A stretch of DNA of 64,000 bases from a virus. The translations under genes were made by a program, and so were the position numbers. The notes under the pieces are model-generated. The model worked only from the letters and a program-made list of their open reading frames with translations, did not search any database and was not told the origin of the DNA. Positions 1 to 54,470 of the stretch are shown one piece after another. Location of the stretch: the IMG/VR virus record IMGVR_UViG_3300025012_000027, positions 74,027 to 138,026 of that record; one strand, given 5' to 3'. Numbering within the stretch: the stretch's first letter is position 1; each line of letters starts with the position of its first letter.

Positions 1-116
1 GGTGTCATCGAGTCGATGTGCGAGAAACTCGGAGCAACATGGCATTTCGAGAAGGCCATCGCGAATGGAACGAAGATCTGTTCGCGTAAATATACATTCA
101 GACAATAAAGGAACAT

Positions 117-431
117 ATGAATACTAGACTATTAACCCCGCCAGAATACTGTCCGGATGCTCTAGCAACGGACGTTGGTTGGATCAACCCAAAGAATGGT
201 GAGATCTTAGTGATCGTAAAGGATTTGCGGAATCGTCTCACATTACAGGCAGCCGAACTCGCAAAGGCGTTGGCGACAATGGAAGCCGTTCCAGAACTTG
301 AGCCAACCACGGTTGATGATGTTGAAGTCGTCAATCAGCCCGAGACCTCATCTAGTGATGCAGTAGAAACCACCAACAAACCAGGGCGTCGCGGGCGTCC
401 TCGTAAAATGACTTCAAAGGAGACAATTTAA
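117..431 (+). CDS. hypothetical small protein with basic AT-hook-like C-terminus (GRRGRPRK)
   Basis: ORF track; ATGA overlap with next gene; C-terminal GRRGRPRK motif. Confidence 0.45.
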   Translation: MNTRLLTPPEYCPDALATDVGWINPKNGEILVIVKDLRNRLTLQAAELAKALATMEAVPELEPTTVDDVEVVNQPETSSSDAVETTNKPGRRGRPRKMTSKETI

Positions 432-1111
432 TGAATTATGGTAAGTGTGACCCAGAATTGGGTAAGCGAGTTCGAGCGTATTTGATGTTGCAGGGGGTCG
501 AGTCTCCAATCGACTATTCTGTGTATGACAGTACGACCGCTGCATCTAAAATTGAGGTGGTAGAACATCACATGAAAGCTGCTCTTGAAATCATGGGGTT
601 CGACCTCACAAACGACTCTGTTCAAAACACCCCCAAGCGAATCGCGAAGATGTGGGTATCCGAGATCATGAGTGGCCTCGACTACAACAACTTTCCAAAG
701 ATTATGACGTTTGAGAACAAGTTCAAAGCATCTGGGATGGTTGTTGAGCGTGATGTTAAGTCAATGAGCCTGTGCAGCCATCACCTAGTTACTATTGACG
801 GCGTTGCTACTGTTGCATACATTCCTAAAGAGCGGGTTATTGGTCTTAGTAAGATCAATCGTGTAGTTGACTATTTTTCCAGACGCCCTCAAGAAGCCGA
901 GCGTTTGACGTTGCAGATCTTCCATGCTCTTGAGTATTTGTTGGGAACTGAAGATATCGCCGTGTTCTTGACAGGCACGCACTTCTGCGTTCGTTCACGT
1001 GGCGTGCAGGATATCAATTCAAGCACATCAACCGTTAAGTTGGGTGGCGGATTCTTGAACGATCCAATGCTGCGCAAAGAATTCTACGACGTGGTGCATT
1101 CAAAGGCGTAA
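431..1111 (+). CDS. folE: GTP cyclohydrolase I (FolE), first step of the preQ0/7-deazaguanine pathway
   Basis: Strong family motifs: SLCSHHLV, VAYIP..VIGLSKINR..RRPQ..ERLT, THFCVRSRGV. Confidence 0.85.
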   Translation: MNYGKCDPELGKRVRAYLMLQGVESPIDYSVYDSTTAASKIEVVEHHMKAALEIMGFDLTNDSVQNTPKRIAKMWVSEIMSGLDYNNFPKIMTFENKFKASGMVVERDVKSMSLCSHHLVTIDGVATVAYIPKERVIGLSKINRVVDYFSRRPQEAERLTLQIFHALEYLLGTEDIAVFLTGTHFCVRSRGVQDINSSTSTVKLGGGFLNDPMLRKEFYDVVHSKA

Positions 1112-1160
1112 TTAAGCCACCTTGATCGGCAGAAATGCCGATCTTTTTTGACTATTCATA

Positions 1161-2489
1161 ATGAAAACTTTCAATAAGCGTATTGGCTTCATCATCTCGG
1201 CTCAGCATCTTATTCCTCACGGCGGCATCGGACAATTCGCCAAGGGGTTGATTGAGATGCTAGACGAGTATCAAATAGATATCATCCTTGATAAGGCTCC
1301 AGCATCATCTGAGTTCGTTGAATTATTGGCCGGTAAAGACAACGTTAAGCTAATATACCCCCCACAGCCGCTTTCGAGCCAAAAACATACTAAGGTACAT
1401 GCCTTCAGCGAAACGTTGAATCTAGAGCGGATCATTAACTTTCGCGATAGTTTGATGCTTGCTCTGCAGACGCAGATCTACGATACTATCATTATCAACA
1501 CGCCTGAAGCACTATTTTCTACATATGCTCTAGGCATTCAAAAGTTCGTTCAAATCGTATTCTATACGCATAATGAGAATCTAGTGTTCAAAGATGCTTC
1601 ATTCGCGGGGGTGTTCAATGACAGCTATGACGAGATCATAGGACAGAGTATGCGATCTGATGGGATCACCGTGGGAACTCAGACACCCAGAAACCTCGAT
1701 GAGTTGGTAGGCATCAAAAGTAAGGCATGGTTACCTATGCCCATCCCTGAAAGGGATCTACTCACTCCAAGCATTATCGAAAAATCTGGGGTGCTGTTCA
1801 TCGGTCGATGGGAAGAACGAAAGAACCCCAAAGAGTTCCTGCGGCTGATTGAAGAAACTGGATTGCCTGCAAAGGTTATGACGAACGAAAACGGTGCTAA
1901 GAGTTTTGAAGCAGCTCTTAGTAAGTTGGGCGTGCCGTATGAGATCAAAGCATCTATCATCGGTAAAGAAAAGGTAGATTTCATTAAGTCAGCGAAAGTG
2001 TTCTATATGCCATCAAAGAGCGAGAGCTATGGGTTTGCTCTGATGGAAGCAATTGGACACACGCATTCAATCGTTCTCGAAGAATATCCGTGGCATAAGA
2101 ACTTTGACCCGACGTTTATTAACGTATCGGCCAAGAAAGATGTTGCATCTTTGACAAAACGATTGTATAATACGCCGGTACATACGGCGAATATTGATTA
2201 TGTACGATCACTAGACGATCAGTGTAAGTCTATCTGGGTTGACTTCATTGAGTCGTTTAACCCAAAGCAATCAACCTCAAATTCGGCTAACATTACCAAA
2301 CATGATGAAGTGCTATATGCAGACTTCATATCATCGTTGGGTCGGTTTGCTAGTATCGAGGATGTAATTTCTGTGCTAAGCAATCGGCATAAATTCACAG
2401 TGTCACATTCCAAAGAAGGAACCTTTCTCTCAAAGAGTGGAAAGACGATTCAAAAGTCTGAAGGCATTTCATTCGACGACATATTCTAA
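1161..2489 (+). CDS. GT-B (GT4-like) glycosyltransferase
   Basis: N-terminal IGFIISAQHLIPHGGIGQFAKGL and C-terminal FYMPSKSESYGFALMEAIGHTHSIV resemble GT4 donor-binding motifs. Confidence 0.55.
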   Translation: MKTFNKRIGFIISAQHLIPHGGIGQFAKGLIEMLDEYQIDIILDKAPASSEFVELLAGKDNVKLIYPPQPLSSQKHTKVHAFSETLNLERIINFRDSLMLALQTQIYDTIIINTPEALFSTYALGIQKFVQIVFYTHNENLVFKDASFAGVFNDSYDEIIGQSMRSDGITVGTQTPRNLDELVGIKSKAWLPMPIPERDLLTPSIIEKSGVLFIGRWEERKNPKEFLRLIEETGLPAKVMTNENGAKSFEAALSKLGVPYEIKASIIGKEKVDFIKSAKVFYMPSKSESYGFALMEAIGHTHSIVLEEYPWHKNFDPTFINVSAKKDVASLTKRLYNTPVHTANIDYVRSLDDQCKSIWVDFIESFNPKQSTSNSANITKHDEVLYADFISSLGRFASIEDVISVLSNRHKFTVSHSKEGTFLSKSGKTIQKSEGISFDDIF

Positions 2490-3737
2490 ATGATAAAAGA
2501 TATACATTACATCGCGTCCGGAATGTCCTACACGAGAATCAATTCTCCGAGGAACTACGAGAACCCAGAAAATTTGCAGTTCATTAATGATACTTTCAGA
2601 AAGATCAGTGATAGTGCAACCAGACATGACTTCGGCATACTGTTCAACGCATTCACTGAATCTGCTTTTGGCGAACGGTTCTCGAAGTATAATGGGCACA
2701 AATTTACACACGCCGACTCAGGTGGCTTGCAAGTAATTACTCAAGGTAAGACGATCACGCCGGCATTGAAAGACGCCGTATATGCTGTTCAAGCTAAGTG
2801 GTCTGATCTGGGGATGTGCTTCGATGAGATTCCAATCGGAATGACTGGAACAACTTCGGGTAGAAATGACGTAACGAATCGTTGGTATAAGTCAGACGAT
2901 CTGGAACACTATGCTAGGCTGACTGGTCGAAACATTGCTAGACAGATTGAAGTTTACCATAAACTAGATTCAAAGTGTAAGCCAATTCTCATTGCTCAAG
3001 GAAACTGTTATGACAGTTACATGCGCTGGGTAGATTATATTATGGATGAGATTCCTGCATCCGACCGTCAATATGTCGGCGGTGTTGCTATGGGAGCTGC
3101 TGCTCTTGGCACAGGCACCCTCGAAGACATCGAGCGAGCATTTATCTTCTCACAATTGCAGATCGACGTCAAGCATCTACACGTGCTGGGAGTTGGTTCT
3201 GTAAAACGACTATATCCGTATTTGGTGTTCCAAGATTCGGGTCTGTATAAAGACATCACATTATCATATGACAGCACTAGCCATACTTCTGGAGGCGAAC
3301 TTGCAAACTATTACACCGAAGATTTCAAACGTCTTTCGTTTACTCGTCAGTATTCGAGACACTATGAAAAGATTTTTAATGAGATTGCTGGGTTCATTGA
3401 CGTTTCTGATTTGACGCCTCGAGACTTTCATGAGATCATGAACAGTGGATACACAAAGTATGTCGAGGAATTGAATAAAAAAGACTTTGACTTTTTGCGT
3501 TGTCGTTTAGGTATTATTTTCAGAATGATCCATAATTTTATCAACCACGTTGAACACGTTATGGCAAGTAAAGAGAACATGATTGAAGATGCGATGCAGC
3601 ATAACCTGCATGGTCAGATTAAGTTCTTGTATGGAGTGAAAGATAAGAATGACTTCGATGCTTGGAACTCGCATTTCAAACGTACCGTTAAGTCAAATCG
3701 TGTGCAATCTGGACAATCTTTAGAATTGGAGTTTTAA
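2490..3737 (+). CDS. dpdA: tRNA-guanine transglycosylase family protein, DpdA-like DNA 7-deazaguanine transglycosylase
   Basis: Catalytic HADSGGLQ (TGT DSGGFQ motif) and HVLGVGS block; sits between folE and queD-like genes. Confidence 0.65.
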   Translation: MIKDIHYIASGMSYTRINSPRNYENPENLQFINDTFRKISDSATRHDFGILFNAFTESAFGERFSKYNGHKFTHADSGGLQVITQGKTITPALKDAVYAVQAKWSDLGMCFDEIPIGMTGTTSGRNDVTNRWYKSDDLEHYARLTGRNIARQIEVYHKLDSKCKPILIAQGNCYDSYMRWVDYIMDEIPASDRQYVGGVAMGAAALGTGTLEDIERAFIFSQLQIDVKHLHVLGVGSVKRLYPYLVFQDSGLYKDITLSYDSTSHTSGGELANYYTEDFKRLSFTRQYSRHYEKIFNEIAGFIDVSDLTPRDFHEIMNSGYTKYVEELNKKDFDFLRCRLGIIFRMIHNFINHVEHVMASKENMIEDAMQHNLHGQIKFLYGVKDKNDFDAWNSHFKRTVKSNRVQSGQSLELEF

Positions 3738-3738
3738 T

Positions 3739-4098
3739 ATGGGAATCAAAACATACATCAAAGTTAGAACTGAGTTTGAAGGGTTTCATAGCTACCCAGG
3801 AGCCGGTAGCATAAGCCCAGCTATCAAATTCCTGGAAGATCGGCATCGCCACATGTTCAAAGTCGAGGTTAAGATCTCTGTGACACATGATGACCGAGAG
3901 TTAGAGTTTTTCTTGACCAAGTGGGCGCTCGAAGATTTCCTGAATAGAAGAGAACTCAATAACAAGAGTTGCGAGATGATTGGGCGTGATATCTTGAACG
4001 ATCATCTGCTGATAGCGTATGGCGGTGATCGATATTATGAAGTCATTGTGTCTGAAGACGGCGAGTCTGATGGTATTGTAGAATATACTCCGGAATAA
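3739..4098 (+). CDS. queD: QueD-like 6-carboxy-tetrahydropterin synthase (PTPS fold), tentative
   Basis: 119 aa; FEGFHSYPGA...RHRHMFKVEVKI parallels QueD FEAAHRLP...LHGHSFMVRLEI; pathway context. Confidence 0.45.
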   Translation: MGIKTYIKVRTEFEGFHSYPGAGSISPAIKFLEDRHRHMFKVEVKISVTHDDRELEFFLTKWALEDFLNRRELNNKSCEMIGRDILNDHLLIAYGGDRYYEVIVSEDGESDGIVEYTPE

Positions 4099-4102
4099 TA
4101 CT

Positions 4103-5194
4103 ATGTCAAAACTTATCATTGTCCCCATTGAACCGATCGAATCTCGGTATACCTCTCAGTGGTATAAGTTCCTGCCAGGTTTTATTAAAGAAAATACGTC
4201 GTTTGATTCAATCGTCCATCTAGAGATTGACAAAGAAGTTCCTGAAAACACTTCTGGTGGGTTCTTTAACTTCAATTTCACGTGCGAGTATAAGGCCGCG
4301 CAATTCATCTCATTATCTGAGATGGTTAAACGTGGTGAGATACAAGACGGTGATGTGATCTTCTATACAGATTACTGGAACCCAACGGTTCATATGACTC
4401 GATACATTCTCGATCTAAATGGAATTCGTGCAAAGATCGTTGGATTTGCTCACGCAGGAGACTGGGACCCAGCTGATATTCTACATCAAAAGCTAGTTAA
4501 TAAACACTGGTCTTGGACTACTGAGATGTCATTGCATCAGGCATATGATCAGATTTATTTCTCGACGTACTTTGCTCGACAGTTGTATGCTAATAATCTT
4601 GGGGCAGATCTAGTATATGCTGCAGGTGCAGACCTCATCGTAACAGGGTTCCCGATGGAATATTATGATGAAGTTCTCCCATCATACTGGGATCTTGAAT
4701 CACCTGTTAATAAAGAAGACTTGATAGTATTCCCTCATCGAATCTCAGATGAGAAAAACTATAAACTATTCAAGATACTTGAGCGTAGGTTGCCGCAATA
4801 CAAATTCGTTGTGGCGATGGAAGTGTGTAAAACGAAAGATGCGTATCACGATCTATTGTACCGAAGCAAAGTAGCATTCTCGGCTGCATTGCAAGAAACA
4901 GGCGGCATAAGTATGGGCATCGAGTCTCTACGAGCAGGCTGTATGACTATAGTTCCTGATCGACTATCATATGCTGAAATCTTTGACCAGTGGGATTTGA
5001 AGTTTGCCGGTGATGTTGCGGATTACGTCGTCACGGAAGATAATGATCCATGTGTCGATATCCTAGTCGATACTATAGTGAAGGCATTCGAAACCTGGAA
5101 CATCGAGGTTATCAAGAAACAACATGATTTGAATTACGCAAAGTATTTCACTGGCACAATTCTTTATGCTGCATTGGATACGTTCAATGAATAA
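4103..5194 (+). CDS. hypothetical protein, possible second GT-B glycosyltransferase
   Basis: ORF track; FPHRISDEKNYKLF and GGISMGIESLRAGCMTIV resemble GT-B C-terminal domain. Confidence 0.35.
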   Translation: MSKLIIVPIEPIESRYTSQWYKFLPGFIKENTSFDSIVHLEIDKEVPENTSGGFFNFNFTCEYKAAQFISLSEMVKRGEIQDGDVIFYTDYWNPTVHMTRYILDLNGIRAKIVGFAHAGDWDPADILHQKLVNKHWSWTTEMSLHQAYDQIYFSTYFARQLYANNLGADLVYAAGADLIVTGFPMEYYDEVLPSYWDLESPVNKEDLIVFPHRISDEKNYKLFKILERRLPQYKFVVAMEVCKTKDAYHDLLYRSKVAFSAALQETGGISMGIESLRAGCMTIVPDRLSYAEIFDQWDLKFAGDVADYVVTEDNDPCVDILVDTIVKAFETWNIEVIKKQHDLNYAKYFTGTILYAALDTFNE

Positions 5195-5702
5195 TATAAT
5201 GCTGGACATTGAAACTTTAGGCACGTCTTCTAATAGCATCATCGTATCTATAGCCGCAGTGGCGTTCAACTTCAAAGATGATATTACCGAAGATTTGTTG
5301 CTAAACTGTTCTCCAAAGAGTAGCAAAGCCCTTGGTATGGTGTCTGATGCTGATACAGTACAATGGTGGGCTGAGCAACCCGCAGAAGTTCGCAATGCAT
5401 GGATGGTAGATCAACGACCTATCACAGACGCGCTAACCACATTATCCGAGTTTGCCGGTACTCAATGGAAGAATGTTGTTTGGTGGTCTAATGGGATGAA
5501 CTTCGATTTCCCAGTATTGGAATGGAGTTATAAGGCTGCAACCATTCCAGTTCCATGGAAGTATTGGAATCTGCGAGATGTTAGAACGGTGTATTCTGTG
5601 TTTGATTTAAACTTTCGAGAATTCCCGAGGGTCGGTAAGTATCACAATGCTATTGATGACTGCAAAACTCAAATCGCTGCCCTGAAATCCGTACTAATCT
5701 AG
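5187..5702 (+). CDS. DEDDh 3'-5' exonuclease (DnaQ/RNase T-like)
   Basis: MLDIETLGT (Exo I), ...HNAIDDCKTQ (Exo III H-x4-D); start 5187 or 5199. Confidence 0.7.
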   Translation: MNNIMLDIETLGTSSNSIIVSIAAVAFNFKDDITEDLLLNCSPKSSKALGMVSDADTVQWWAEQPAEVRNAWMVDQRPITDALTTLSEFAGTQWKNVVWWSNGMNFDFPVLEWSYKAATIPVPWKYWNLRDVRTVYSVFDLNFREFPRVGKYHNAIDDCKTQIAALKSVLI

Positions 5703-5743
5703 TCGGTTAGTTCTCTTTCTTAAATAATAGAAAGAGAACTAAA

Positions 5744-6103
5744 ATGTCCAATAATGTATCTGAAGAATCTTGGTTTAAACACCAATGGAGACCCACGACT
5801 GCTTGGGTCTATCTTGCCATCTGTCTTTTCGACTTCCTGATAGCACCCATTCTAACCGCTGTATATTTTGCAAAATATGGTGGTGACTATGTTGCTTGGA
5901 AGCCGATATCATTGTCTGAAGGTGGATTGTTCCACATGGCAATGGGCGCAATCTTAGGTATCACTAGCTGGACTCGTGGTCAAGAGCGAATCTCATCAGC
6001 TAGATATCGATCAGAACATTCGTATAGGTCAGACGACCGTGCCCCATATCGTTCTACCACGGAGACTGATTTCAGGGATAACCTGATCAATGATGACAGA
6101 TGA
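5744..6103 (+). CDS. membrane protein, putative holin
   Basis: Two predicted TM helices; immediately upstream of and overlapping the endolysin. Confidence 0.5.
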   Translation: MSNNVSEESWFKHQWRPTTAWVYLAICLFDFLIAPILTAVYFAKYGGDYVAWKPISLSEGGLFHMAMGAILGITSWTRGQERISSARYRSEHSYRSDDRAPYRSTTETDFRDNLINDDR

Positions 6104-6714
6104 TCACAGTTGAACAACTACTAGAGATTTTTCCTAGAATAGAAGATGCTGACTTTTGGGTCGAGGCAATGGAGTATAATCTACCAGCTCATGATATCAT
6201 AGAAGGGCCGCGTCTTTGGATGTTTTTAGCACAGTGCGGGCATGAGTCTGCTGGGTTCACAGTTTTTCAAGAAAACTTGAACTACTCAAGCACCGGTCTG
6301 TTAAAAACTTTTCCGAAGTATTTTAACACAAAACTTGCAGCTCAATGCGCGAGACAGCCAGAACTTATAGCAAATATTGTGTATGCTAACCGAATGGGTA
6401 ATGGTCCATCAGAAAGTGGCGATGGTTATAGGTTTAGAGGTAGAGGACCAATCCAAATCACGGGTCGCAGAAACTACACTGCTATGTCACACGATCTATG
6501 GGGTGATGATCGAGCCGTTGAAGAACCTGAGATGATTCTTTCGCCCGACAATGCAATTGCTAGTGCTGGATGGTATTGGGACATCGCAAAACTAAATCAA
6601 TATTGTGATCGAGAAGACGTCGTTACTGTTACCCGACGCATCAATGGTGGTACTAATGGATTGGCCGATCGCAAACATCTTTACGCACAAATCAAAGAAA
6701 TGTTGAACCAGTAG
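6100..6714 (+). CDS. GH19 (chitinase-like) endolysin
   Basis: QCGHESAGF and RGRGPIQITGRRNY GH19 signature. Confidence 0.8.
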   Translation: MITVEQLLEIFPRIEDADFWVEAMEYNLPAHDIIEGPRLWMFLAQCGHESAGFTVFQENLNYSSTGLLKTFPKYFNTKLAAQCARQPELIANIVYANRMGNGPSESGDGYRFRGRGPIQITGRRNYTAMSHDLWGDDRAVEEPEMILSPDNAIASAGWYWDIAKLNQYCDREDVVTVTRRINGGTNGLADRKHLYAQIKEMLNQ

Positions 6715-6721
6715 GATCTGG

Positions 6722-6730
6722 TGTTATAAT
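6722..6730 (+). promoter_or_regulatory. extended -10 promoter TGTTATAAT (representative of about 25 copies)
   Basis: Recurring motif 20-40 nt upstream of gene starts. Confidence 0.6.
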
Positions 6731-6754
6731 ACACATACTTTATTGGAGTGTATT

Positions 6755-6961
6755 ATGAAAATGTTGACTAAGCAGGTGTTTGTTGAGTTTGATCCTAAAG
6801 ACCCATCACATCGCAAATCGTTCGAACGTTTCTTAGCCACATCGTCGTGGAAACACACTACGTCGAGGTTTGTTCTCGAAGATAAGTTTGCCGACGTACC
6901 TAGCATGGTATCTCGAAAGCTGCTAGATTTTTATATGACACGTGATTCTGATCTGAAATAA
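6755..6961 (+). CDS. hypothetical protein
   Basis: ORF track; promoter TGTTATAAT at 6722 and RBS GGAG upstream. Confidence 0.5.
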   Translation: MKMLTKQVFVEFDPKDPSHRKSFERFLATSSWKHTTSRFVLEDKFADVPSMVSRKLLDFYMTRDSDLK

Positions 6962-7035
6962 TATCCACTTGAAATACTTGGTCTCTCCTTGTAACTGCAA
7001 AATTGTGTTATAATAGCGGCACACAAGGAGTTCCA

Positions 7036-7765: not shown

Positions 7766-7800
7766 TGTAAATGGCAGATGAATTTAAAGTATTGAGTGAC
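7766..7800 (+). repeat. 35-bp direct repeat (left copy) duplicating the RBS and first 10 codons of the topoisomerase gene
   Basis: Identical to 8896-8930 (TGTAAATGGCAGATGAATTTAAAGTATTGAGTGAC). Confidence 0.9.
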
Positions 7801-8815
7801 CGCCATGCGCATTACTGTTGAGTGATTTGCAGTTGTCGTAGTGAAATCTTTTAAAATTCCATGTGGTGCCGATTCGATTACAGTGCGGACATTCAAACCT
7901 ATTAGGTACCCTCCCTAACACATATCCTGCAGGAACACTAGATGATTGTGGTAATCTTAAGTTGTCGACGCCGTTATTATACCATCTAGTGCTAGTAACC
8001 GCATGCTTATATAGGTGATTGTTCTTCCAGAATTCAGCGGTGGTTATAGTAATCCGTTTATCGGTGGTCAACTCGATGACTGGTATGCGACCGGAGCATC
8101 CCTTATTGCCTTTACCAGTATGGTCATATAAGTCTTTATTAGCCGCATACTCTTCGCTAGTCAGTCTTACTTTTTCAGTCGTCCCTTTAGTATGAACGGT
8201 TAGTTTTCCGGATGGAAGTTTTAGCCCAGAATTCCAAGATGGGGTCCCTTCCGCGAAATGTTTGTATAACCCTCGATTTGCACGATATTCGGCTACAGTT
8301 ACCCAGACAGTTTCATCAGTTGCTACTAATTTACACGACAGATGCGCTGGATGAGTAGCACAATGTCGGGTTCGACTGTCAGAAATCTTCTTGCGCGTTT
8401 CTGGGCTGACATATTTTCCGGTATGCCTTTTCGATACTTGTTTGGCATGTGCTATACACGCCTCGCCGTATAACAAAGCCGCGTTTATCATATTGTCGTC
8501 GTCAAACTTAGATATGTTTTGGGTCGAACACATCAACAGCAAAGGTGATGCGTTTTGCGCAACTCGCCATGATTTCCATAATAAGAAATGTGCGACGAGG
8601 TGATCTGAGTGTGTTAGAATAACCCGATTCCACGGAAATCTTGCAAAATTTGAATATTGGCCAAATGCCCATCTAGGAAGTATGTGGTGAGCTGCGGTTT
8701 TAAATTTTATGCGTTTTGGCAGACGCGCAGATTCTATGAATGTAAAATATTCAACTAGATCTATCGTAGGATATTCTTGACGAAACGCGTCAACATAAGT
8801 ATAATTACTGAACAT
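7784..8815 (-). CDS. HNH homing endonuclease with repeated DNA-binding modules and C-terminal zinc finger
   Basis: HHILPRW...N...H HNH core; three repeats (TVAEYRANRGLYKHF / TSEEYAANKDLYDH / TTAEFWKNNHLYKH); CPHC...C; one of only three complete minus-strand CDS in the window; flanked by a 35-bp duplication. Confidence 0.75.
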   Translation of the reverse strand: MFSNYTYVDAFRQEYPTIDLVEYFTFIESARLPKRIKFKTAAHHILPRWAFGQYSNFARFPWNRVILTHSDHLVAHFLLWKSWRVAQNASPLLLMCSTQNISKFDDDNMINAALLYGEACIAHAKQVSKRHTGKYVSPETRKKISDSRTRHCATHPAHLSCKLVATDETVWVTVAEYRANRGLYKHFAEGTPSWNSGLKLPSGKLTVHTKGTTEKVRLTSEEYAANKDLYDHTGKGNKGCSGRIPVIELTTDKRITITTAEFWKNNHLYKHAVTSTRWYNNGVDNLRLPQSSSVPAGYVLGRVPNRFECPHCNRIGTTWNFKRFHYDNCKSLNSNAHGGHSIL

Positions 8816-15877: not shown

Positions 15878-16137
15878 CTGAATTTTCAAAAGCACTGCGC
15901 AAAGCACGGCCATTGATTGAGTCTGGTGAAGCGCGATTTATGTGTCACGCATTAGGAATTACGGGAGGCGGCAATTTCGCCAGTCGGATTTCGAGGCATC
16001 TCAAAAAATGCTTAACTTACGAAATTTGGCTTGATAAACACCACCGCGAGGTGTTCCTCAAGATGACCAAAAACGACTTCCGTGATGGCCGCCTGCAATG
16101 GATCGACCACATGATCAAGATGGAGGAATCGAAATGA
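15874..16137 (+). CDS. small protein, paralog family (RLQWIDHMI C-terminus), copy 1
   Basis: Paralogous to 25684..25965 and 25972..26253 (ALRKARPLIESGEA...GRLQWIDHMI). Confidence 0.6.
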   Translation: MTEFSKALRKARPLIESGEARFMCHALGITGGGNFASRISRHLKKCLTYEIWLDKHHREVFLKMTKNDFRDGRLQWIDHMIKMEESK

Positions 16138-16379
16138 AAAAAGAAGAAGTGCTTGAGATTGCCAGGATGTCTGATGCGGGGTTTGGCAGCGACATCGAAA
16201 ATTGTGACCCTCTATCAGATTGTCTTATTGGGTATGAGGCAATAGCCGCGTTTGCTGGCGAAGTCGAACGTCGAACGCTTGAACGTGCTATCACACAGAC
16301 CATCGGTAAAGGGTTCGTCTCCGAGTATTACTCCTATGATTTTATCGATGCCATCAGAGCATTAAAGGAATCGAAATGA
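16134..16379 (+). CDS. hypothetical protein
   Basis: ORF track; start moved to ATG in the GGAATCGAAATGA coupling motif. Confidence 0.5.
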   Translation: MKKEEVLEIARMSDAGFGSDIENCDPLSDCLIGYEAIAAFAGEVERRTLERAITQTIGKGFVSEYYSYDFIDAIRALKESK

Positions 16380-16555
16380 AATTCAACTTACGGAAATTCA
16401 ACGATGTTGCTTTTTGTACATTGGAAGAATCCGGGACAATTATTGATTTCGGTGTGCTAGATGTGAATGATGCCAAGAAGCTACTGCGAGAAATCGAAGA
16501 TGCTGCTGATGAACTTAAATGGTATCTTGAAAAACAGAACAAGGAACCGAAATGA
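16376..16555 (+). CDS. hypothetical small protein (59 aa)
   Basis: Not in ORF track (<60 aa); starts and ends in GGAAxCGAAATGA coupling motifs. Confidence 0.4.
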   Translation: MKFNLRKFNDVAFCTLEESGTIIDFGVLDVNDAKKLLREIEDAADELKWYLEKQNKEPK

Positions 16556-17127
16556 ACACAACACTAAAACAAATCCGCGAGAAATCACCATGTATTAGTG
16601 GCTGGGGAAATCTACTCGCCCACCTCGGGAAAACGAAAGCAGATGATGAGCCGCTGAGCATCTTAACGATCCTGGACAGCAATGGATTGAATGATGCCCT
16701 TTGGTGCCTACGCGCGGTGAAAGGCCGCGATAAGGAAATCCGCCTATACGCCGTTTGGTGCGCTCGCCAAGTGCAACACCTGATGACAGACCAGCTTAGC
16801 TTGGATGCACTAGATGTAGCAGAGAGGTTCGCAAAGGGCGAAGCCACAGATGATGAATTGGCTGCTGCGTGGGCTGCTGCGCGGACTGCTGCGTGGACTG
16901 CTGCGGAGGCTGCTGCGCGGACTGCTGCGGAGGCTGCTGCATGGACTGCTGCTGCATGGACTGCTGCGGAGGCTGCTGCATGGACTGCTGCTGCATGGAC
17001 TGCTGCTGCGCGGACTGCTGCGGAGGCTGCTGCATGGACTGCTGCGGAGGCTGCTGCGAAGGTTGCGCAAGAAAAACGACTACGTGAAGTATGTATTGAA
17101 TGCGAAAACAAATGGGAATCAAAATGA
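16552..17127 (+). CDS. Ala-rich tandem-repeat protein ((A)AWTAAEAAA / ARTAAEAAA units)
   Basis: ORF track; contains the 24-bp-unit DNA repeat at 16861-17058. Confidence 0.5.
   Translation: MNTTLKQIREKSPCISGWGNLLAHLGKTKADDEPLSILTILDSNGLNDALWCLRAVKGRDKEIRLYAVWCARQVQHLMTDQLSLDALDVAERFAKGEATDDELAAAWAAARTAAWTAAEAAARTAAEAAAWTAAAWTAAEAAAWTAAAWTAAARTAAEAAAWTAAEAAAKVAQEKRLREVCIECENKWESK
16861..17058 (+). repeat. imperfect tandem repeat, 24-bp units (GCG[C/T]GGACTGCTGCGGAGGCTGCT) plus 15-bp half units
   Basis: Seen directly; about 200 bp; creates spurious ORFs in several frames. Confidence 0.85.
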
Positions 17128-17549
17128 CAGCATTCCCAACCCACTATCGCATTAAAGACGTACTTGACGAATCAGGTGTCCACATCATCATGGAAAAGTG
17201 GCACCCACTGAGCGAGACGCCCGAAGGCTACTGGGTGTTGCTTGACGGTGGACCTAGCTGGCACGGTATTGACAAAAAATACCAGCGTAAATGTGGCGCC
17301 CTGAAGTGGGTGAGCAAGACCTCCGTCAGGCGCTACTGCTACCCCACCATGACCGAGGCGATGGCGTCATTCAAGCGACGCAAGGAAGTGCAGGTGAGCA
17401 AGCTGGCCATCCAACTGGAGCAGGCGCAACTGGCGCTGGCCAAGTTTGATGACTACAAGGACGCAACACCAAACAGTTTCCCTTCGCGCTACGAGGGAAT
17501 TTGCCTTGGCGAGATTGAGGCGGCAGCAAATTTAATTTGGGATTATTGA
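17124..17549 (+). CDS. hypothetical protein
   Basis: ORF track; start at ATGA overlap; high-GC codon usage. Confidence 0.5.
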   Translation: MTAFPTHYRIKDVLDESGVHIIMEKWHPLSETPEGYWVLLDGGPSWHGIDKKYQRKCGALKWVSKTSVRRYCYPTMTEAMASFKRRKEVQVSKLAIQLEQAQLALAKFDDYKDATPNSFPSRYEGICLGEIEAAANLIWDY

Positions 17550-17550
17550 C

Positions 17551-18030
17551 ATGAACACAGAACAGATCATGGCACTGGCGACGGCTTGGCGAACAGCCAG
17601 CTACGCAGACCGAGACACCCACAAAGCAGCCCTACAAGCCGCCATCGAAGCACTGGTGCAGGAGCGGGATGCGCTACAAAAGGAGCAGCCCGCAGGAACC
17701 TCAACAGCACTTGAGTTAGCGAACGATCTTTTAAACAACGTGACCCATATTCGTCAAGCCGATGCAGCAGCAGCGCTGCGCAGACTAGATGCCGAAAATG
17801 GCGCGATGAAATCCAGCATCGAGGCTCTTGAGCAAGCGCGGGACGAATATCGGGAAAAAATGTTTAGTTGGGTACATGCAAATTCCGCAGGAGGGTGGAT
17901 TGATGGTCTGCGCTTGGAGTGCGACAAGCTGGCAGCAGAGAACAAGGTGCTTCGGGATGCGCTCGCTAGGATTAAAGCGAGAGAAAGCAACGACTGGAAT
18001 TCCAGCCCAGACAACCCCGAAAACTACTAA
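17551..18030 (+). CDS. coiled-coil protein with LRRLDAEN / NKVLRDALA motifs
   Basis: ORF track; motif shared with the next gene. Confidence 0.5.
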   Translation: MNTEQIMALATAWRTASYADRDTHKAALQAAIEALVQERDALQKEQPAGTSTALELANDLLNNVTHIRQADAAAALRRLDAENGAMKSSIEALEQARDEYREKMFSWVHANSAGGWIDGLRLECDKLAAENKVLRDALARIKARESNDWNSSPDNPENY

Positions 18031-33704: not shown

Positions 33705-33806
33705 TGGTTGGTTGGGCTCTTAAATAGGCTCTACGGAATAACGTGTTGAATTCATGATTTAGGTTTATACTCATAAAACGGATTAACGTGTAGAAAAGGA
33801 TTCGAT

Positions 33807-34454
33807 ATGACAAAAGAACGCTTCGGGGTGGCTGAACTCATCCTTCGGGAGGTTTGCGAGATGGACCCCGATGACCCGGAGAAGAGCGACACCATTTGTA
33901 TTGATGTGTCCACCTTGAAGCGGGTTATTGACGCCCACATTAGTGAGACGGACGAGCGCCACGGGCTGGACAGCGACACTCGCGTCTGCTTCTATGAGCA
34001 GGATTTTTACGTCCTGTCGAACTTCAGCTCGTTCAATCTTGTTGGCGGGTTCTATGGAAGCCCCCAGTCTGATGGCATCACATTCGCTACCAGTGAGCAC
34101 GCCTATCACTGGCATAAGTTCCAGCCGACCGACAGCGATTTGGCCGATGCCATTCTGTTCGCGCCGTCTGCTCACGACGCCTTTAAGCTTGCCGAGCGCA
34201 ACAAGGTAAATCGTTGGGACCGATGGGACGAATTCAAGGTGGAAATCATGCGCGACATCCTGCGAGCCAAAGTGACCCAGCACGAATACGTGCGCCGAAA
34301 GCTCCTGGCGACAGGCGACCGCGAACTGGTTGAGAACTCGTGGCGCGATGACTTTTGGGGGTGGGGACCAACCCAGGATGGCGCAAACATGCTGGGCAAG
34401 CTTTGGATGGAAATCAGAGCCGAAATCCGCGCAAAGGATACCCCTGACAATTGA
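33807..34454 (+). CDS. NADAR (YbiA-like, DUF1768) domain protein, IS passenger
   Basis: FYEQDFYVLSNFSSF, FATSEHAYHWHKF, WRDDFWGWGPTQDGANMLGKLWMEIR match NADAR conserved blocks. Confidence 0.7.
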   Translation: MTKERFGVAELILREVCEMDPDDPEKSDTICIDVSTLKRVIDAHISETDERHGLDSDTRVCFYEQDFYVLSNFSSFNLVGGFYGSPQSDGITFATSEHAYHWHKFQPTDSDLADAILFAPSAHDAFKLAERNKVNRWDRWDEFKVEIMRDILRAKVTQHEYVRRKLLATGDRELVENSWRDDFWGWGPTQDGANMLGKLWMEIRAEIRAKDTPDN

Positions 34455-34457
34455 TGG

Positions 34458-35924
34458 ATGACTGACATCCTCGACCTTAAAGGCTGGACGGTGCTCTCCA
34501 AGTCTCAATCCGATGGTGAATACGTGATTGAGGCCGAGTACACCATTCAGCCCGCCAACTGCCCAAAATGCGGGGTTGTTGACACTCCATACAAGCATGG
34601 CGTAAAGCCCATCAGGTATCGCGACAGCCCCATCAGGGGTTCCGCTGTGGTCATCCTGGCCAACGTCCAGAGGTACAGGTGCAAGCACTGCAAGGAGACG
34701 TTCCTTCAGCCATTGGAAGGCATTTACCCTGATATGAGGATGACACAGCGCTGTGTTGAGTACATTGAAACCCAGTGCCTTCGGGACACCTTTGTTCGGA
34801 TTGCCGAGCATATTGGCTGTGATGACAAGACTGTAAGGACCGTTGCTGGCACTTACATTGACTCCATGAATGCCAAGTTCAAACCCTGGCTTCCTGAGTG
34901 GCTGGGCATTGATGAAACACAGATTGACGGCGAACTCCGATGCATCATCACTGATGTGGTCAACCGTAAGCCGGTGGATATGCTGCCCAATCGTGACAAG
35001 GTGTCGGTCACGGCATGGCTGTACCAGTTCAAAGACCGGCGCACCGTCAAGGGATTGGCCATTGACATGTGGCGTCCATATAAGGATGCAGCCCAAGCAG
35101 TGTTCCCCGGCCTGCCTGTAGTCATTGACAAGTTCCATGTAGTCAAGATGGCCAACAAGGCTTTGGAGGACATTCGCATTGCCCTTGCCAAAGACCAGCC
35201 CAAGGCAGTCGGCAAGGACTGGATGAGGCGCAAGGCACTGCTGCGGATGCGGTACAAGAATCTGGATGAAAAGGGCCGGTTTGCCCTCAGCATGTGGCTG
35301 GACAACGAACTGGCTCTCAAAGTCGCTTACGACCTCAAAGAAGCCTTCTATGACATCTACGATGCCCCTACCAAGGCAGAAGCTGGAACCCGGCTGGATG
35401 CTTGGCGCAACTCCATTCCCGCAACCATGAAGAAGGGGAAAAAGAGCTTTGCGCCCCTCATTACCGCCACGAAGAACTGGCGAGAAGAGATTCTTGCCTT
35501 CTTTGACCACCCCATCAGCAACGGGTACACAGAGGCTCTGAACGGCGTTGCCAAGGTAACCAATAGGCAAGGCAGGGGCTACAGCTTTGAAGTCCTCAGA
35601 GCCCGCGTTTTGTTCTCCAAGATTTCCAGAGTCCCTGTTACTGAAGAGGATGAGGTAACGGAAGTAGAGATGCCAGAACCCGAACAGGTTGAGGTAGTCA
35701 TCCATAACCCAGCCCGTACCGTGCGCCACATGCTGCTTTACAAGTACAAGAACAGGTGTCAGTCCTGTCTTGGAGTGTTTCCCCCATCCGAGCTTTATGT
35801 CGCTCGAATGGGTGTCTTCCTTGAGGATGAACCAATGAAAAACAGGACGTTGATGTGTGCCCCTTGCAAAGAGCGTTTCCACACAGATGGAATTAAGCAT
35901 GTTCATTCAACTTCCACACCTTAA
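34458..35924 (+). CDS. ISL3-family transposase (zf-ISL3 + DDE_Tnp_ISL3) with about 100-aa Cys-containing C-terminal extension
   Basis: N-terminal CPKC...CKHC zinc finger; DHPISNGYTEALNGVAKVTNRQGRGYSFEVLRARVLF matches the ISL3 C-terminal signature; stop lies inside IRR. Confidence 0.8.
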   Translation: MTDILDLKGWTVLSKSQSDGEYVIEAEYTIQPANCPKCGVVDTPYKHGVKPIRYRDSPIRGSAVVILANVQRYRCKHCKETFLQPLEGIYPDMRMTQRCVEYIETQCLRDTFVRIAEHIGCDDKTVRTVAGTYIDSMNAKFKPWLPEWLGIDETQIDGELRCIITDVVNRKPVDMLPNRDKVSVTAWLYQFKDRRTVKGLAIDMWRPYKDAAQAVFPGLPVVIDKFHVVKMANKALEDIRIALAKDQPKAVGKDWMRRKALLRMRYKNLDEKGRFALSMWLDNELALKVAYDLKEAFYDIYDAPTKAEAGTRLDAWRNSIPATMKKGKKSFAPLITATKNWREEILAFFDHPISNGYTEALNGVAKVTNRQGRGYSFEVLRARVLFSKISRVPVTEEDEVTEVEMPEPEQVEVVIHNPARTVRHMLLYKYKNRCQSCLGVFPPSELYVARMGVFLEDEPMKNRTLMCAPCKERFHTDGIKHVHSTSTP

Positions 35925-35969: not shown

Positions 35970-36746
35970 ATGTCACAAGATACACTCGTAACCGAATCCG
36001 CCATTGCATATATTATGATGCAAGAATCAATTTTGCTTGAATCTCGATTAGATTACCTAAAGGCAAATACTCCTCCATTGTCTACGGATCATGATACTAC
36101 GGCTATTCATAAAGATACACCAAGCATCATCCAGCACTTTGCGGATAATGCTGATCCAACCCCAAACAAGCAACGCACGCAATACATCGTTGGATTGTAT
36201 CGCGCTAAGAAGATTCGACAAGAAGATGCGCCTAGAATTAAAGAAGCTTTGTCGTCATTTGAAAAATACAAACACAAATTAGATCCATCAGAGAAACAAC
36301 TCACCGTGTCTGCATATCCAACGGTTGCTAGTATTGAAGATAAAATGGTCCCGCATGTGGGCACCATGGCAACAAAACGTGAAGCTGAGCGCAATCTAAA
36401 TCAACCCGGCCACGAGTTGAAGTACGATGATGAGAACATCTCGATATATCATTTGAAAGACAAAGAGACTTCCCAGAATTTGTATGGTGGCGGTCATCAA
36501 CGTGGCGGTACCGGTACATCATGGTGCACTGCTGCTAGATCCAAAGATTGTATGTTTGATCAATATGCAAAAGATGGACGATTACACGTATTGCATGATA
36601 AAAAGACTGGTAGTGTGTATCAATACCACACTAAATCTGCGTCGTTTATGGATGCTAAAGACAACGAGATTTCACCGGAAGATTTCAAAGCAATTGCTCC
36701 AAGTTTTCATAAGGCCATTCTTTCTAATCCCGATCTGTTAAAATAA
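35970..36746 (+). CDS. hypothetical protein
   Basis: ORF track; first gene after the IS. Confidence 0.55.
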   Translation: MSQDTLVTESAIAYIMMQESILLESRLDYLKANTPPLSTDHDTTAIHKDTPSIIQHFADNADPTPNKQRTQYIVGLYRAKKIRQEDAPRIKEALSSFEKYKHKLDPSEKQLTVSAYPTVASIEDKMVPHVGTMATKREAERNLNQPGHELKYDDENISIYHLKDKETSQNLYGGGHQRGGTGTSWCTAARSKDCMFDQYAKDGRLHVLHDKKTGSVYQYHTKSASFMDAKDNEISPEDFKAIAPSFHKAILSNPDLLK

Positions 36747-37339
36747 TGAATGTACGCAAACTTTTTCTAGCCAAGTACGGGGCTAAAGACCATCTCGATG
36801 AATTGGTTAATGATACTGATTTGGTTGTTAGGGATGCTGTAGCTAAAAATCCATCCGCAACGAAAGAACATCTAGATACGCTCGTTAATGATAAATCCGA
36901 GTATGTTAGAGAATCTGTAGCCAGTAACCCAAATGCCTCGAAAGAGCATCTAGATAAACTAGCGGCGGATAATCACTTCTATGTTAGAGCGGCAGTAGCT
37001 CAGAATCCAAACGCCTCGAAAGAGCATCTAGATAAACTTGTTAACGATATAGACTGGCATGTTAGACGCGATGTAGCTCGGCATCTAAACGCCTCGACCG
37101 AACATCTAGATAAGCTGGTTAGTGATGCAGCCGAGTATGTTAGACACGCTGTAGCTAAGAATCCAACTGCCTCGAAAGAGCATCTAGATAAACTTGTTAA
37201 CGATGATGATTGGCATGTTAGAGTCGCTGTAGGTCGGCATCCTAATGCTACTAAAGATCATCTAGATAAGCTGGTTAGTGATGATAACAGTGATGTTAGA
37301 CGTGACGCGAAAGAAAATCTAACGAAAAGAAAACTATGA
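36746..37339 (+). CDS. repeat protein, eight 23-aa LRV-like repeats, copy 1
   Basis: Repeating EHLDKLVND..x.VR..VA.NPNASK unit; 69-bp DNA periodicity. Confidence 0.6.
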   Translation: MNVRKLFLAKYGAKDHLDELVNDTDLVVRDAVAKNPSATKEHLDTLVNDKSEYVRESVASNPNASKEHLDKLAADNHFYVRAAVAQNPNASKEHLDKLVNDIDWHVRRDVARHLNASTEHLDKLVSDAAEYVRHAVAKNPTASKEHLDKLVNDDDWHVRVAVGRHPNATKDHLDKLVSDDNSDVRRDAKENLTKRKL

Positions 37340-37932
37340 CCGATCAACGACACGAATTTCTGGCTAAGTATGGTGCTAAAGAGCATCTAGATAAGTTGGT
37401 TACTGATAAAAGCGAGTATGTTAGAGAATCTCTGGTATCAAATCCCAGCATAACTAACGATCATCTAGATAAGTTGGTTACTGATGAACACCCGGGTGTT
37501 AGACACGCTGTAGCTAGAAACCGAACTGCTTCGAAAGAACATCTAGATAAACTGGTTACTGATAAAAACGAGTATATTAGACGTAGTGTAGCTCGGAATC
37601 CAAATGCAACTAAAGATCATCTAGATAAACTGGTTACTGATAAAAGCGAGTATGTTAGAGAAGCTGTAACCAAGAGTCCAAATGCTTCGAAAGAACATCT
37701 AGATAAACTAGTTAACGATAGAGATTGGCATGTTAGAGAATCTGTAGCTAGTCATCCAAATGCAACTAAAGATCATCTAGATAAGTTGGTTACTGATGAA
37801 CACTGGGGTGTTAGACGTGCGGTAGCTAGTAGTCCAAATGCTTCAAAAGAACATCTGGATAAGTTGGTTACTGATGAACACGTATATGTTAGCCGTGTCG
37901 CGAAAGAGAATCTAGCGAGTAGAAAACTTTAA
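37336..37932 (+). CDS. repeat protein, LRV-like repeats, copy 2 (tandem paralog)
   Basis: Same repeat architecture; ATGA overlap with copy 1. Confidence 0.6.
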   Translation: MTDQRHEFLAKYGAKEHLDKLVTDKSEYVRESLVSNPSITNDHLDKLVTDEHPGVRHAVARNRTASKEHLDKLVTDKNEYIRRSVARNPNATKDHLDKLVTDKSEYVREAVTKSPNASKEHLDKLVNDRDWHVRESVASHPNATKDHLDKLVTDEHWGVRRAVASSPNASKEHLDKLVTDEHVYVSRVAKENLASRKL

Positions 37933-54051: not shown

Positions 54052-54470
54052 ATGAAAAACGTAAACAGAAACTAATTCTCATTCGTGGACTTCCCGGTAG
54101 TGGCAAAAGCACTCTCGCGAAATCGTTTGATGGGTTTCACTTCGAAGCCGATCAATATTTTGTAGATGCATTGACGGGCGAGTATGAATTTGATGCATCT
54201 AGATTGCATCTCGCGCATGCAATTTGTCAACAAAGTGCCAGGGATGCACTGACTACTGGGGCCGATGCAATCGTTAGCAACACGTTCACTACCTTGAAAG
54301 AACTCAAACCATATTTCAAGTTGGCAAAAGAGTTTAAGATTGTTCCCACAGTAATCTTGTGTCAAAACATGTTTGGTAACGTACATAACGTTCCGGTTGA
54401 AGCATTGGATCGTATGCGAGACAGATTCGCATATGACATTTCAAGTTTGTTTAATGAAGGTGGCGAATGA
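54052..54470 (+). CDS. P-loop kinase (AAA_33 / polynucleotide-kinase-like); annotated ATG is one base out of frame with the Walker A reading frame
   Basis: Frame-0 translation KRKQKLILIRGLPGSGKSTLAKSF...; no in-frame ATG/GTG/TTG upstream; ATG at 54052 is in frame +1 and sits in the run GAAAAAC. Confidence 0.5.

Follow-up and report, generated by a model that had tools for sequence, protein, structure and literature searches.

The DNA analysed here, hereafter the window, is a 64-kb stretch of viral sequence (IMG/VR record IMGVR_UViG_3300025012_000027, positions 74,027 to 138,026), and near its start lies a predicted 7-deazaguanine DNA-modification module in which two genes for GT4-type glycosyltransferases, GTa and GTb, are interleaved. 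As shown in Table 1, the five open reading frames (ORFs) reported in a preliminary description of this DNA, made from the sequence alone, were all present and all on the plus strand. The first of them was identified as folE in agreement with that description, since its product scored above the cut-off of both curated models, Pfam PF01227 (6.7e-53, 179 bits against a cut-off of 27) and the NCBIfam equivalog NF006824 (3.2e-82, 275 bits against a cut-off of 202). The gaps along the run GTa–dpdA–dpdL–GTb measure 0, 1 and 4 nt, respectively, and GTb overlaps the following exonuclease gene (Exo) by 29 nt. The best terminator-like site in positions 1–7000 was a hairpin at 1124–1143 followed by six T residues, located between folE and GTa and predicted to act as a terminator.

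Table 1. Features of the deazaguanine module and its surroundings (positions in the window)
Feature	Position	Strand	Evidence
folE, GTP cyclohydrolase I	431..1111	+	Pfam PF01227, NCBIfam FolE equivalog, PHROG 2197
Terminator-like hairpin (GATCGGCAGAAATGCCGATC + TTTTTT) between folE and the next four packed genes	1124..1149	+	sequence
GTa, GT4-type glycosyltransferase, 442 aa	1161..2489	+	motifs, homolog annotations
dpdA, TGT-fold transglycosylase, 415 aa	2490..3737	+	motifs, predicted structure
dpdL, QueD/PTPS paralog, 119 aa	3739..4098	+	LxxxHRHxF signature, phiST DpdL match
GTb, GT-B fold GT4-type glycosyltransferase, 363 aa	4103..5194	+	predicted structure, donor-site residues
Rv2179c-like 3'-5' exonuclease (Exo)	5166..5702	+	Pfam PF16473 6.6e-38

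The window belongs to a T4-like groundwater phage. An identical FolE protein was found on a 213,375-bp groundwater-metagenome contig (ENA ERZ909590), which upstream of window position 1 encodes UvsX, the gp41 helicase, a radical-SAM QueE (285 aa) and a canonical 6-pyruvoyl tetrahydropterin synthase (PTPS)/QueD (166 aa), followed by a 104-aa ORF (window 117–431). QueD and QueE thus lie 0.1–1.5 kb upstream of the window start on the source contig. The window and this upstream part together make about 74 kb visible of a genome of about 213 kb. Window position 1 corresponds to position 9571 of the 213-kb contig (L004). Because only about 17 kb remain downstream of that point, the 64-kb window must derive from a second assembly of this phage with a different permutation. 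Contigs of 216,329 bp encode proteins identical to those of the window phage. A megablast search of the block against 50,697 phage records returned no match, and the phage is known from metagenomes only.

The product of dpdA is predicted from its structural model to swap guanine in DNA for a deazaguanine base. The motif DSGGLQ was located at residues 76–81, together with FDEIP (111–115), LGVGS (233–237) and YDS (260–262), and all four were invariant or nearly so among 52 DpdA homologs (pattern DSGGLQ, FDxxP, LGxG, YDSTxH). Residues D76, in DSGGLQ, and D261, in SYDS, were invariant in these 52 homologs and in seven homologs from cultured phages. The AlphaFold model (AF2) had a predicted local distance difference test (pLDDT) score of 94.5, and the top 50 Foldseek matches were all tRNA-guanine transglycosylase (TGT) or DpdA proteins (E values of 5e-9 to 1e-7, probability 1.00, TM about 0.5), including the solved DNA preQ0 insertase DpdA (7ui4). 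The preliminary description had placed this protein in the TGT family on account of its DSGG(L/F)Q motif and had made the assignment depend on TGT-fold similarity; the motif is present and the similarity was found, the top Foldseek match having an E value of about 5e-9. The homology is visible at the level of the fold only: Pfam, including the TGT model PF01702, and NCBIfam gave no match for DpdA, Pfam gave none for six homologs from cultured phages, and phmmer and profile hmmsearch against PDB sequences returned nothing useful. The zinc site of TGTs (CxCxxC...H) is not conserved, as the protein has four cysteines (110, 163, 173 and 338), none of them invariant, and no CxCxxC.

The DpdA family comprised 794 clusters. 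The window protein was 32–35% identical to phage proteins labelled queuine tRNA-ribosyltransferase and 31–33% identical to the DpdAs of Vibrio Schizotequatroviruses, Menderavirus and pf16, to whose type it is closer than to DpdA3. Identity with DpdA3 was considered and rejected, since hhalign against gp042 of phage phiST (PhiST_gp042) gave a probability of only 5.6%. A second, long DpdA-like type (about 510–560 aa; GDSGGFQ, YLGNG, LDAASPF) without a Pfam match was found by clustering the unknown neighbours of GTb homologs, and it pairs with DpdL, GTb and a phosphoribosyltransferase (PRTase) in most IMG/VR loci. In phage PA5oct this protein is EST35_0316 (locus L024, 5382–7004), which is annotated as hypothetical, is 540 aa long and carries ADSGGFQ, HFLGLG and SFDAAS; a further example is found at L026, 6533–8224. 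The first impression that the main GTb clade has no DpdA was overturned by this clustering.

DpdL has been described as a QueD paralog in which the CxxxHGH motif is replaced by LxxxHRHxF, and it is predicted to decarboxylate 7-carboxy-7-deazaguanine (CDG) to 7-deazaguanine (Cui et al. 2023, Nucleic Acids Research, PMC10516641). The same work reported DpdL only from phages that do not encode QueC, and decarboxylation of CDG is a prediction even for the founding member from Cellulophaga phage phiST (PMC10516641). The ORF between dpdA and GTb encodes LEDRHRHMF at residues 32–40, which fits the DpdL signature, and L32, H36, H38 and F40 were invariant among nine family members. The window protein matched phiST DpdL with 7e-11 in tblastn, the family aligned with phage QueD, a T-fold paralog, in hhalign (89.7%, E 1.8e-6), and Pfam PTPS was above cut-off for some members. 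The window protein itself had no Pfam or NCBIfam match, and neither phmmer nor a profile hmmsearch against PDB sequences was informative for it. With it as query, an exhaustive phmmer search returned 1782 representatives. The ORF had been called QueD-like, which holds in that it encodes a T-fold QueD paralog. It was rejected as the QueD of the pathway, because it bears the DpdL signature and the canonical PTPS is encoded upstream of the window.

As previously noted, neither QueE nor QueC is encoded in the window. A search beyond it, through the upstream stretch, located QueE just upstream of the window start. QueC was not found in the 64-kb window plus 9.5 kb upstream, nor in 'Synechococcus' phage BUCT-ZZ01, which is the closest relative in culture and has a complete genome of 156 kb. 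Among IMG/VR relatives, QueC was present in none of 80 GTb loci and in one of 80 DpdA loci, the latter without DpdL and GTb. The context therefore fits DpdL, with FolE, QueD, QueE and DpdA present and no QueC within about 74 kb. Judged by its gene content, the module is a QueC-less system of the dDG type described by Cui et al. 2023 and not one of the preQ0/G+ type. With QueC absent and DpdL present, the predicted base is CDG-derived 7-deazaguanine (dDG) and not preQ0, dG+ or dADG. The earlier view of a 7-deazaguanine DNA-modification cassette around a DpdA-type transglycosylase was thus upheld, while its framing as a preQ0/G+-type cassette was not, since the published scheme predicts a route from CDG to dDG.

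The GT-B fold suggested for the product of GTb was confirmed in its predicted structure (pLDDT 95.1), which shows two Rossmann domains and a GT4-type fold. The donor-site residues R213, K218, E265 and E274 were invariant and align with the GRWEERKN and EX7E motifs of GTa, the acidic pair of GTb being spaced as EX8E, one residue off EX7E. The Pfam model Glycos_transf_1 gave 14.7 bits, below the gathering score of 26.4, some homologs are annotated with PF00534, and a profile search against PDB sequences gave a weak glycosyltransferase match (8xsg, 1.7e-4). The best structural neighbours of GTb were enzymes with small-molecule acceptors, with BshA in second place, and the GTb family is mostly acidic, with a median isoelectric point (pI) of 5.5 against 9.05 for T4 beta-glucosyltransferase (beta-GT).

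GTa, a distant paralog of GTb, is extended at its C-terminus by a conserved region of about 100 aa. It carries GRWEERKN and EX7E (E288–E296) and scored below threshold against Glycos_transf_1 (3.5e-5, 23.9 bits against a cut-off of 26.4); many of its 1752 homologs bear PF00534 or PF13692, and a profile search against PDB sequences returned no match. The statement that the two glycosyltransferases have no described role in the pathway agreed with our full-text literature search, in which no paper was found that ties a glycosyltransferase to DpdL, dDG or any deazaguanine in DNA, a remark in the 2024 Microbiology and Molecular Biology Reviews article (PMC10966956) or in the supplement of Cui et al. 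still being possible.

A pathway with 5-hydroxymethylcytosine (hmC) or 5-hydroxymethyluracil (hmU) as acceptor was rejected, since no ThyA/gp42 homolog was found in the window or in complete BUCT-ZZ01, only ThyX. Neither T4 beta-GT nor gp42 gave a tblastn match in the window, in the 9.7 kb upstream or in the complete BUCT-ZZ01 genome. A ThyX-like flavin-dependent thymidylate synthase is encoded at window 54467–55375 (partial Pfam match 3.2e-11; 49% identical to BUCT-ZZ01 ThyX), and no ThyA-family enzyme was seen.

To describe the gene neighbourhoods, IMG/VR was scanned with three family profiles (GTb, DpdA and GTa), and six-frame ORFs around the 80 closest relatives of each query were scored by local hidden Markov models (HMMs) at E<1e-5. 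The scan yielded at least 576 relatives for GTb, 418 for DpdA and 429 for GTa, and loci with at least 4 kb on each side of the anchor gene were counted as informative (48, 38 and 47, respectively). DpdL adjoins GTb in 79 of the 80 GTb loci. Among the 48 informative ones, DpdL was present in 48, DpdA in 46 (45 of the long PA5oct type and one of the window type), FolE in 45, QueE in 42, PRTase in 37, a family termed u182 in 34, a nicotinamide adenine dinucleotide (NAD)-dependent sugar epimerase in 26, a nucleotidyltransferase-cupin in 20, and QueC in none. The 38 informative DpdA loci contained GTb (37), DpdL (35), FolE, QueD and QueE (38 each), PRTase (35), Exo (35) and QueC (1). For GTa, the 47 informative loci contained QueD (45), QueE (45), a sugar epimerase/dehydratase (43), FolE (39), the nucleotidyltransferase-cupin (37), GTb (32) and DpdL (25).

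Three typical gene orders were identified, in which NTcupin is the nucleotidyltransferase-cupin, Epim the epimerase and PRT the PRTase: NTcupin–Epim–DpdA(long)–u182–DpdL–GTb–PRT–FolE–QueE, QueE–PRT–FolE–Exo–DpdA–DpdL–GTb–QueD, and DpdA(long)–DpdL–GTb–FolE–NTcupin–QueD–QueE–GTa–Epim–UvdE. Since the orders differ between the sets, the linkage survives rearrangement. The Exo gene lies mostly between FolE and DpdA where it is present, and the window Exo was 41% identical to the syntenic gene of BUCT-ZZ01.

In cultured phages, GTb homologs were found in 23 records, and a DpdL homolog was adjacent or within about 3 kb in 18 of them: eleven PA5oct-like jumbo phages, ACP17 (two records), Sinorhizobium phage Phosso (469 kb), X1, BUDD, BCSR5 and BUCT-ZZ01. 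The linkage therefore occurs on T4-like backbones (ACP17, ZZ01, X1), in jumbo phage PA5oct, in the 469-kb Phosso and in BCSR5. In ACP17 GTb lies between DpdA and DpdL, and in PA5oct the long DpdA-like protein of 540 aa is followed by GTb and DpdL, with QueE further on. BUCT-ZZ01 has the order QueE, PRTase, QueD, FolE, GTa, DpdA, DpdL, GTb and Exo, the same order as in the window phage. In the examined loci of the QueC-type relatives (Menderavirus Moby, pf16, Vibrio Schizotequatrovirus and Vibrio 1.081.O), neither DpdL nor GTb was found. In Stenotrophomonas phage Moby (L003, 5502–6752), an inositol-3-phosphate synthase gene was observed inside the QueC-type cluster, in the order FolE–Ino1–hypothetical protein–QueC–TGT–QueE.

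Genes for sugar metabolism were also part of these clusters. The NAD sugar epimerase/dehydratase (Pfam 1.9e-41) is usually located directly downstream of GTa, and both it and the nucleotidyltransferase-cupin lie in among the Que genes; a gene for a UDP-glucose 4-epimerase was found in BUCT-ZZ01. The window itself was searched for PRTase, epimerase, nucleotidyltransferase-cupin, PIG-L and u182, and none was found. Among the top 150 of the 1782 DpdL representatives, at least 12 proteins of about 257–294 aa have DpdL fused to an N-terminal PIG-L/LmbE-like domain with the conserved motifs APHxDDExIGC and HPHHK. PF02585 (GlcNAc-PI de-N-acetylase) matched five of ten fusions, the best with 4.8e-6 and a sub-threshold 27.5 bits against a cut-off of 28.2, and a profile search of the fusions against PDB sequences returned no match. 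Other DpdL fusions were to the u182 family, MazG (9e-10), dUTPase (3.4e-24) and DUF6378.

Three of the fusion genes were inspected in their own contigs. On a 293-kb contig the order was a PAPS-reductase-like gene, PIG-L-DpdL, a 444-aa protein, a 140-aa protein, a GTb-family glycosyltransferase (E 4e-54), a TGT-family protein with DSGGFQ, and RecA, and on a second contig PIG-L-DpdL was followed by a GNAT acetyltransferase and a GTb-family glycosyltransferase (9e-56). In phage X1 a stand-alone PIG-L-like gene (4e-37) lies one gene away from GTb. PIG-L/LmbE enzymes act right after GT4 GlcNAc-transferases, as in the pairs MshA/MshB, BshA/BshB and PIG-A/PIG-L. Sugar-activating and sugar-tailoring genes, the glycosyltransferase and DpdL are thus repeatedly joined, both physically and genomically, to a TGT-type transglycosylase.

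Two further genes recur in these clusters. The first, u182 (a conserved family of about 130–180 aa, no Pfam match), lies next to DpdL in 63 of the 80 GTb loci, for example at L012 3446–3955, L010 5471–6001 and L006 7492–8001 (ACP17), and is also found fused to the DpdL C-terminus (P0358; u182 HMM 6.5e-11). It is probably a further unrecognised component of the pathway. The second is a small PAPS-reductase/PP-loop gene (about 170–215 aa) directly upstream of PIG-L or PIG-L-DpdL in four independent contexts (L002 5206–5739 in X1, L265 4433–4936, L266 7348–7998 and L267 7493–8008). PP-loop ATPases such as QueC activate carboxylates. The PP-loop protein might link an amino sugar to the carboxylate of CDG, in which case DpdL would do something other than decarboxylate.

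As far as gene content can tell, co-occurrence in hundreds of loci, on several backbones and with two DpdA subtypes, together with the interleaved sugar-nucleotide enzymes and the DpdL-PIG-L fusion, shows that both glycosyltransferases belong to the cassette. Compared with the literature, the new element would be one or two GT4 glycosyltransferases as regular parts of DpdL-type clusters, accompanied by sugar-nucleotide enzymes and in some lineages by a PIG-L-like domain. With slightly better than even confidence, we propose that the glycosyltransferases are integral to the QueC-less 7-deazaguanine module, GTb glycosylating the deazaguanine and GTa providing a second sugar.

In the proposed pathway, FolE would convert GTP to dihydroneopterin triphosphate (H2NTP), QueD would convert H2NTP to carboxytetrahydropterin (CPH4), QueE would convert CPH4 to CDG, and DpdL, following the published prediction, would convert CDG to 7-deazaguanine. 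DpdA would exchange guanine in the phage DNA for the deazaguanine base. With a nucleotide sugar as donor, GTb would attach a sugar to the deazaguanine, either on the free base before insertion or in the DNA afterwards, and GTa would add or extend a second sugar. The result would be virion DNA with a sugar-bearing 7-deazaguanine as a block to restriction enzymes and other nucleases. Bulky substituents at position 7 are tolerated by enzymes of the TGT family, and the eukaryotic TGT inserts queuine. Because of this tolerance, the acidic character of the GTb family and the small acceptors used by its structural neighbours, glycosylation before insertion is plausible. What the data show are the enzyme identities and folds, the lack of QueC in the sequence covered and the close, widespread coupling of the genes; which molecule accepts the sugar, which sugar it is, where it is attached and whether it stays in the DNA are inferred.

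Several points weigh against this proposal. The acidic pI and the small-molecule structural neighbours make a soluble acceptor as likely as DNA for GTb. The linkage of GTa is looser, as it lies about 40 kb from the cluster in X1 and BUDD and is without Que neighbours in one 389-kb contig. The IMG/VR loci, each set consisting of the closest relatives of one query, are phylogenetically clustered and not independent, and the visible part of the genome is about 74 of about 213 kb. 7-Deazaguanine has no hydroxyl group, and GT4 enzymes usually form O-glycosides. A sugar on this base would therefore require an N- or C-glycosidic link (N2, C7) or another DpdL product in the lineages that bear the glycosyltransferases. 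Finally, in phiST, which encodes DpdL, replacement by plain dDG is complete (100%; Cui et al. 2023, PMC10516641). Since phiST makes dDG without GTb, the glycosyltransferase is not required for dDG, and the addition would come downstream of DpdL or beside it.

Two published observations fit the proposed glycosylation. In the work of Cui et al., dDG was not reconstituted from dpdA and dpdL of ACP17 alone, and other enzymes were suggested to be needed (PMC10516641); this fits the position of GTb between those two genes in ACP17. DNA of PA5oct is resistant to restriction enzymes with G-containing sites (PMC12191111), and this resistance, together with the presence of GTb in PA5oct, fits a glycosylated deazaguanine. 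More broadly, and with somewhat less than even confidence, a glycosylated 7-deazaguanine may take the place of guanine in a large, mostly uncultivated group of phages that includes the window phage, ACP17, BUCT-ZZ01, X1/BUDD and the PA5oct jumbo phages. In this group the base would be made by FolE, QueD, QueE and DpdL with one or two GT4 enzymes, would in some lineages bear an amino sugar tailored by PIG-L or GNAT enzymes, and would be inserted by DpdA, and the role of DpdL would perhaps go beyond, or differ from, simple decarboxylation of CDG.

It is unlikely that the glycosyltransferases act in the pathway while the sugar is not the final mark on the DNA. GTb, in other lineages together with PIG-L, PRTase, MazG or dUTPase, would then act on a soluble intermediate; the sugar would serve as a transient glycosyl carrier or activating group in the synthesis or delivery of the deazapurine, or be part of a nucleotide route in which the PRTase makes a nucleotide of the base for incorporation by the polymerase, and the DNA would contain plain dDG or a non-sugar derivative. 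The frequency of the PRTase in informative GTb and DpdA loci would be explained in this way, as would the fusions of DpdL to MazG and to dUTPase. In the tubercidin and toyocamycin pathways a PRTase acts on CDG or preQ0. The failed reconstitution with dpdA and dpdL alone can also be read in this direction (PMC10516641). However, phiST reaches its full replacement by dDG without GTb, no PRTase was found within the 74 kb visible of the window phage, and the dedicated epimerase, nucleotidyltransferase, PIG-L and GNAT genes look like the tailoring of a sugar that is retained.

We regard it as quite unlikely that the glycosyltransferases have nothing to do with deazaguanine and act instead on a host envelope polysaccharide, a phage protein or another base (hmC or hmU), sharing with the module only a syntenic early-gene region. 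In its favour, T4 keeps its hmC glucosyltransferase in the same pol/uvsX/41 neighbourhood, GTa is not always linked to the cluster, the sampled loci are phylogenetically clustered, and phage glycosyltransferases are commonly credited with remodelling of surface polysaccharides (PMC7824862). Against this, GTb and DpdL were adjacent in all but one of the 80 GTb loci, and their adjacency held on unrelated backbones, with two DpdA subtypes and where the gene order was rearranged; GTb and QueC were mutually exclusive; and DpdL was fused to a sugar-deacetylase-like domain near GTb and DpdA. A hydroxymethylase of the ThyA/gp42 type and a homolog of T4 beta-GT were both absent from the window and from complete BUCT-ZZ01. 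A preQ0, dG+ or dADG cassette with queC and queE elsewhere in the genome and sugars on top is highly improbable: QueE does lie outside the window and only part of the genome is covered, but DpdL is present, which is reported only from QueC-less phages (PMC10516641), and QueC was missing from the complete BUCT-ZZ01 genome, from all GTb loci and from all DpdA loci except the one that has neither DpdL nor GTb.

The module was compared with known systems. It resembles the dDG system of phiST (PMC10516641) in having FolE, QueD, QueE, DpdL with the same LxxxHRHxF and a TGT-family DpdA, and in having no QueC. It differs in that two GT4 genes are interleaved, whereas phiST has neither GTa nor GTb; the DpdA3 of phiST is short (259 aa) and barely related to the 415-aa window DpdA, and the neighbours of DpdL in phiST include MazG and an AAA_18 ATPase. 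With the DpdA1 and DpdA2 systems for preQ0, preQ1, dG+ and dADG (Hutinet et al. 2019; Schizotequatrovirus nt-1 and 6E35-1a, PMC12028318) it shares a TGT-fold DpdA with DSGG(L/F)Q, FolE, QueD and QueE. Unlike the window module, those systems have QueC, and QueF, Gat-QueC or ArcS, and no DpdL or GTb. In contrast to hmC glucosylation in T4 by gp42 and the alpha- and beta-glucosyltransferases, the predicted target is a purine analogue and not a pyrimidine, there is no hydroxymethylase and no homology to beta-GT, and GTb is acidic while beta-GT is basic.

Glycosylated queuosine reportedly occurs in eukaryotic tRNA, where manQ is said to be formed by QTMAN/GTDC1, a GT4-family enzyme, and galQ by QTGAL, in work attributed to Zhao et al. 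in 2023. In that case a glycosyltransferase likewise acts on a 7-deazaguanine derivative that a TGT put into nucleic acid. The sugar is accepted there by the cyclopentenediol hydroxyl of tRNA-borne queuosine, whereas the window module has no queuosine side chain and its presumed target is DNA or the free base. Unlike in the MshA/MshB, BshA/BshB and PIG-A/PIG-L pairs, the PIG-L-like domain of the present clusters is sub-threshold, and none was found in the visible part of the window phage. The deazaguanine module lies in the pol/uvsX/41 region of Moby, ACP17, X1 and the window phage, where T4 keeps gene 42 and beta-gt between the DNA polymerase and uvsX/41 (T4 locus L018, 10401–12220), which suggests a swappable DNA-modification slot in T4-like genomes.

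To our knowledge, every DNA glycosylation described to date is on a pyrimidine derivative (glucosyl- and arabinosyl-hmC, base J and glycosylated 5-hydroxycytosine), and the eight 7-deazaguanine DNA marks described so far that we know of are all small. If the proposed glycosylation is true, no DNA would have been known before to contain a purine analogue with a sugar, and DNA hypermodification would gain a new chemical class. The proposal would also explain the failed reconstitution of dDG from dpdA and dpdL, identify the G modification in phages of the PA5oct type, in which there is therapeutic interest and which END nucleases target, and provide a new handle for DNA that resists restriction, CRISPR and sequencing. 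Even if no sugar is retained, it follows from the coupling of the glycosyltransferase to DpdL, and in part to PIG-L, that in most DpdL-encoding phages the dDG pathway as published lacks components.

Other features of the window were also recorded. An ISL3-family transposase (34458–35924, DDE_Tnp_ISL3 5.4e-55) is preceded by a gene with a NADAR domain (33807–34454), and this region (33783–35924) is rich in GC (0.53 against about 0.43) and is spanned by an antisense ORF of 707 aa; it is either an insertion sequence (IS) element that entered the phage genome or a chimera of the assembly. Another GC-rich patch, at 16000–18000 (0.51), has strong AT skew and the overlapping ORFs 16515–17144 (minus strand) and 16552–17127 (plus strand), without a Pfam match. 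A pair of genes for NAD+ salvage, encoding a nicotinamide mononucleotide adenylyltransferase (NMNAT)-Nudix protein (42888–43913) and a nicotinamide phosphoribosyltransferase (43966–45399), is also present in BUCT-ZZ01. Two tandem paralogs made of LRV/HEAT-type repeats (36746–37932; Pfam LRV 1.8e-28 and 2.8e-25) are unusual for a phage. The only sizeable minus-strand gene of the first 12 kb (7784–8815) encodes 343 aa with repeated '...LYKH/LYDH...' and HHILPRW and no Pfam match; it may be an insertion resembling a homing endonuclease, placed between the lysis genes and topoisomerase II. Outside the window, on the contig of P0106 (ENA ERZ22067504), a GTa homolog adjoins a 344-aa gene of the adenylosuccinate synthetase family, which is the size of PurZ, as well as inosine monophosphate dehydrogenase (IMPDH) and UvdE. 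PurZ is the enzyme of 2-aminoadenine genomes, and the P0106 phage may modify two purines.

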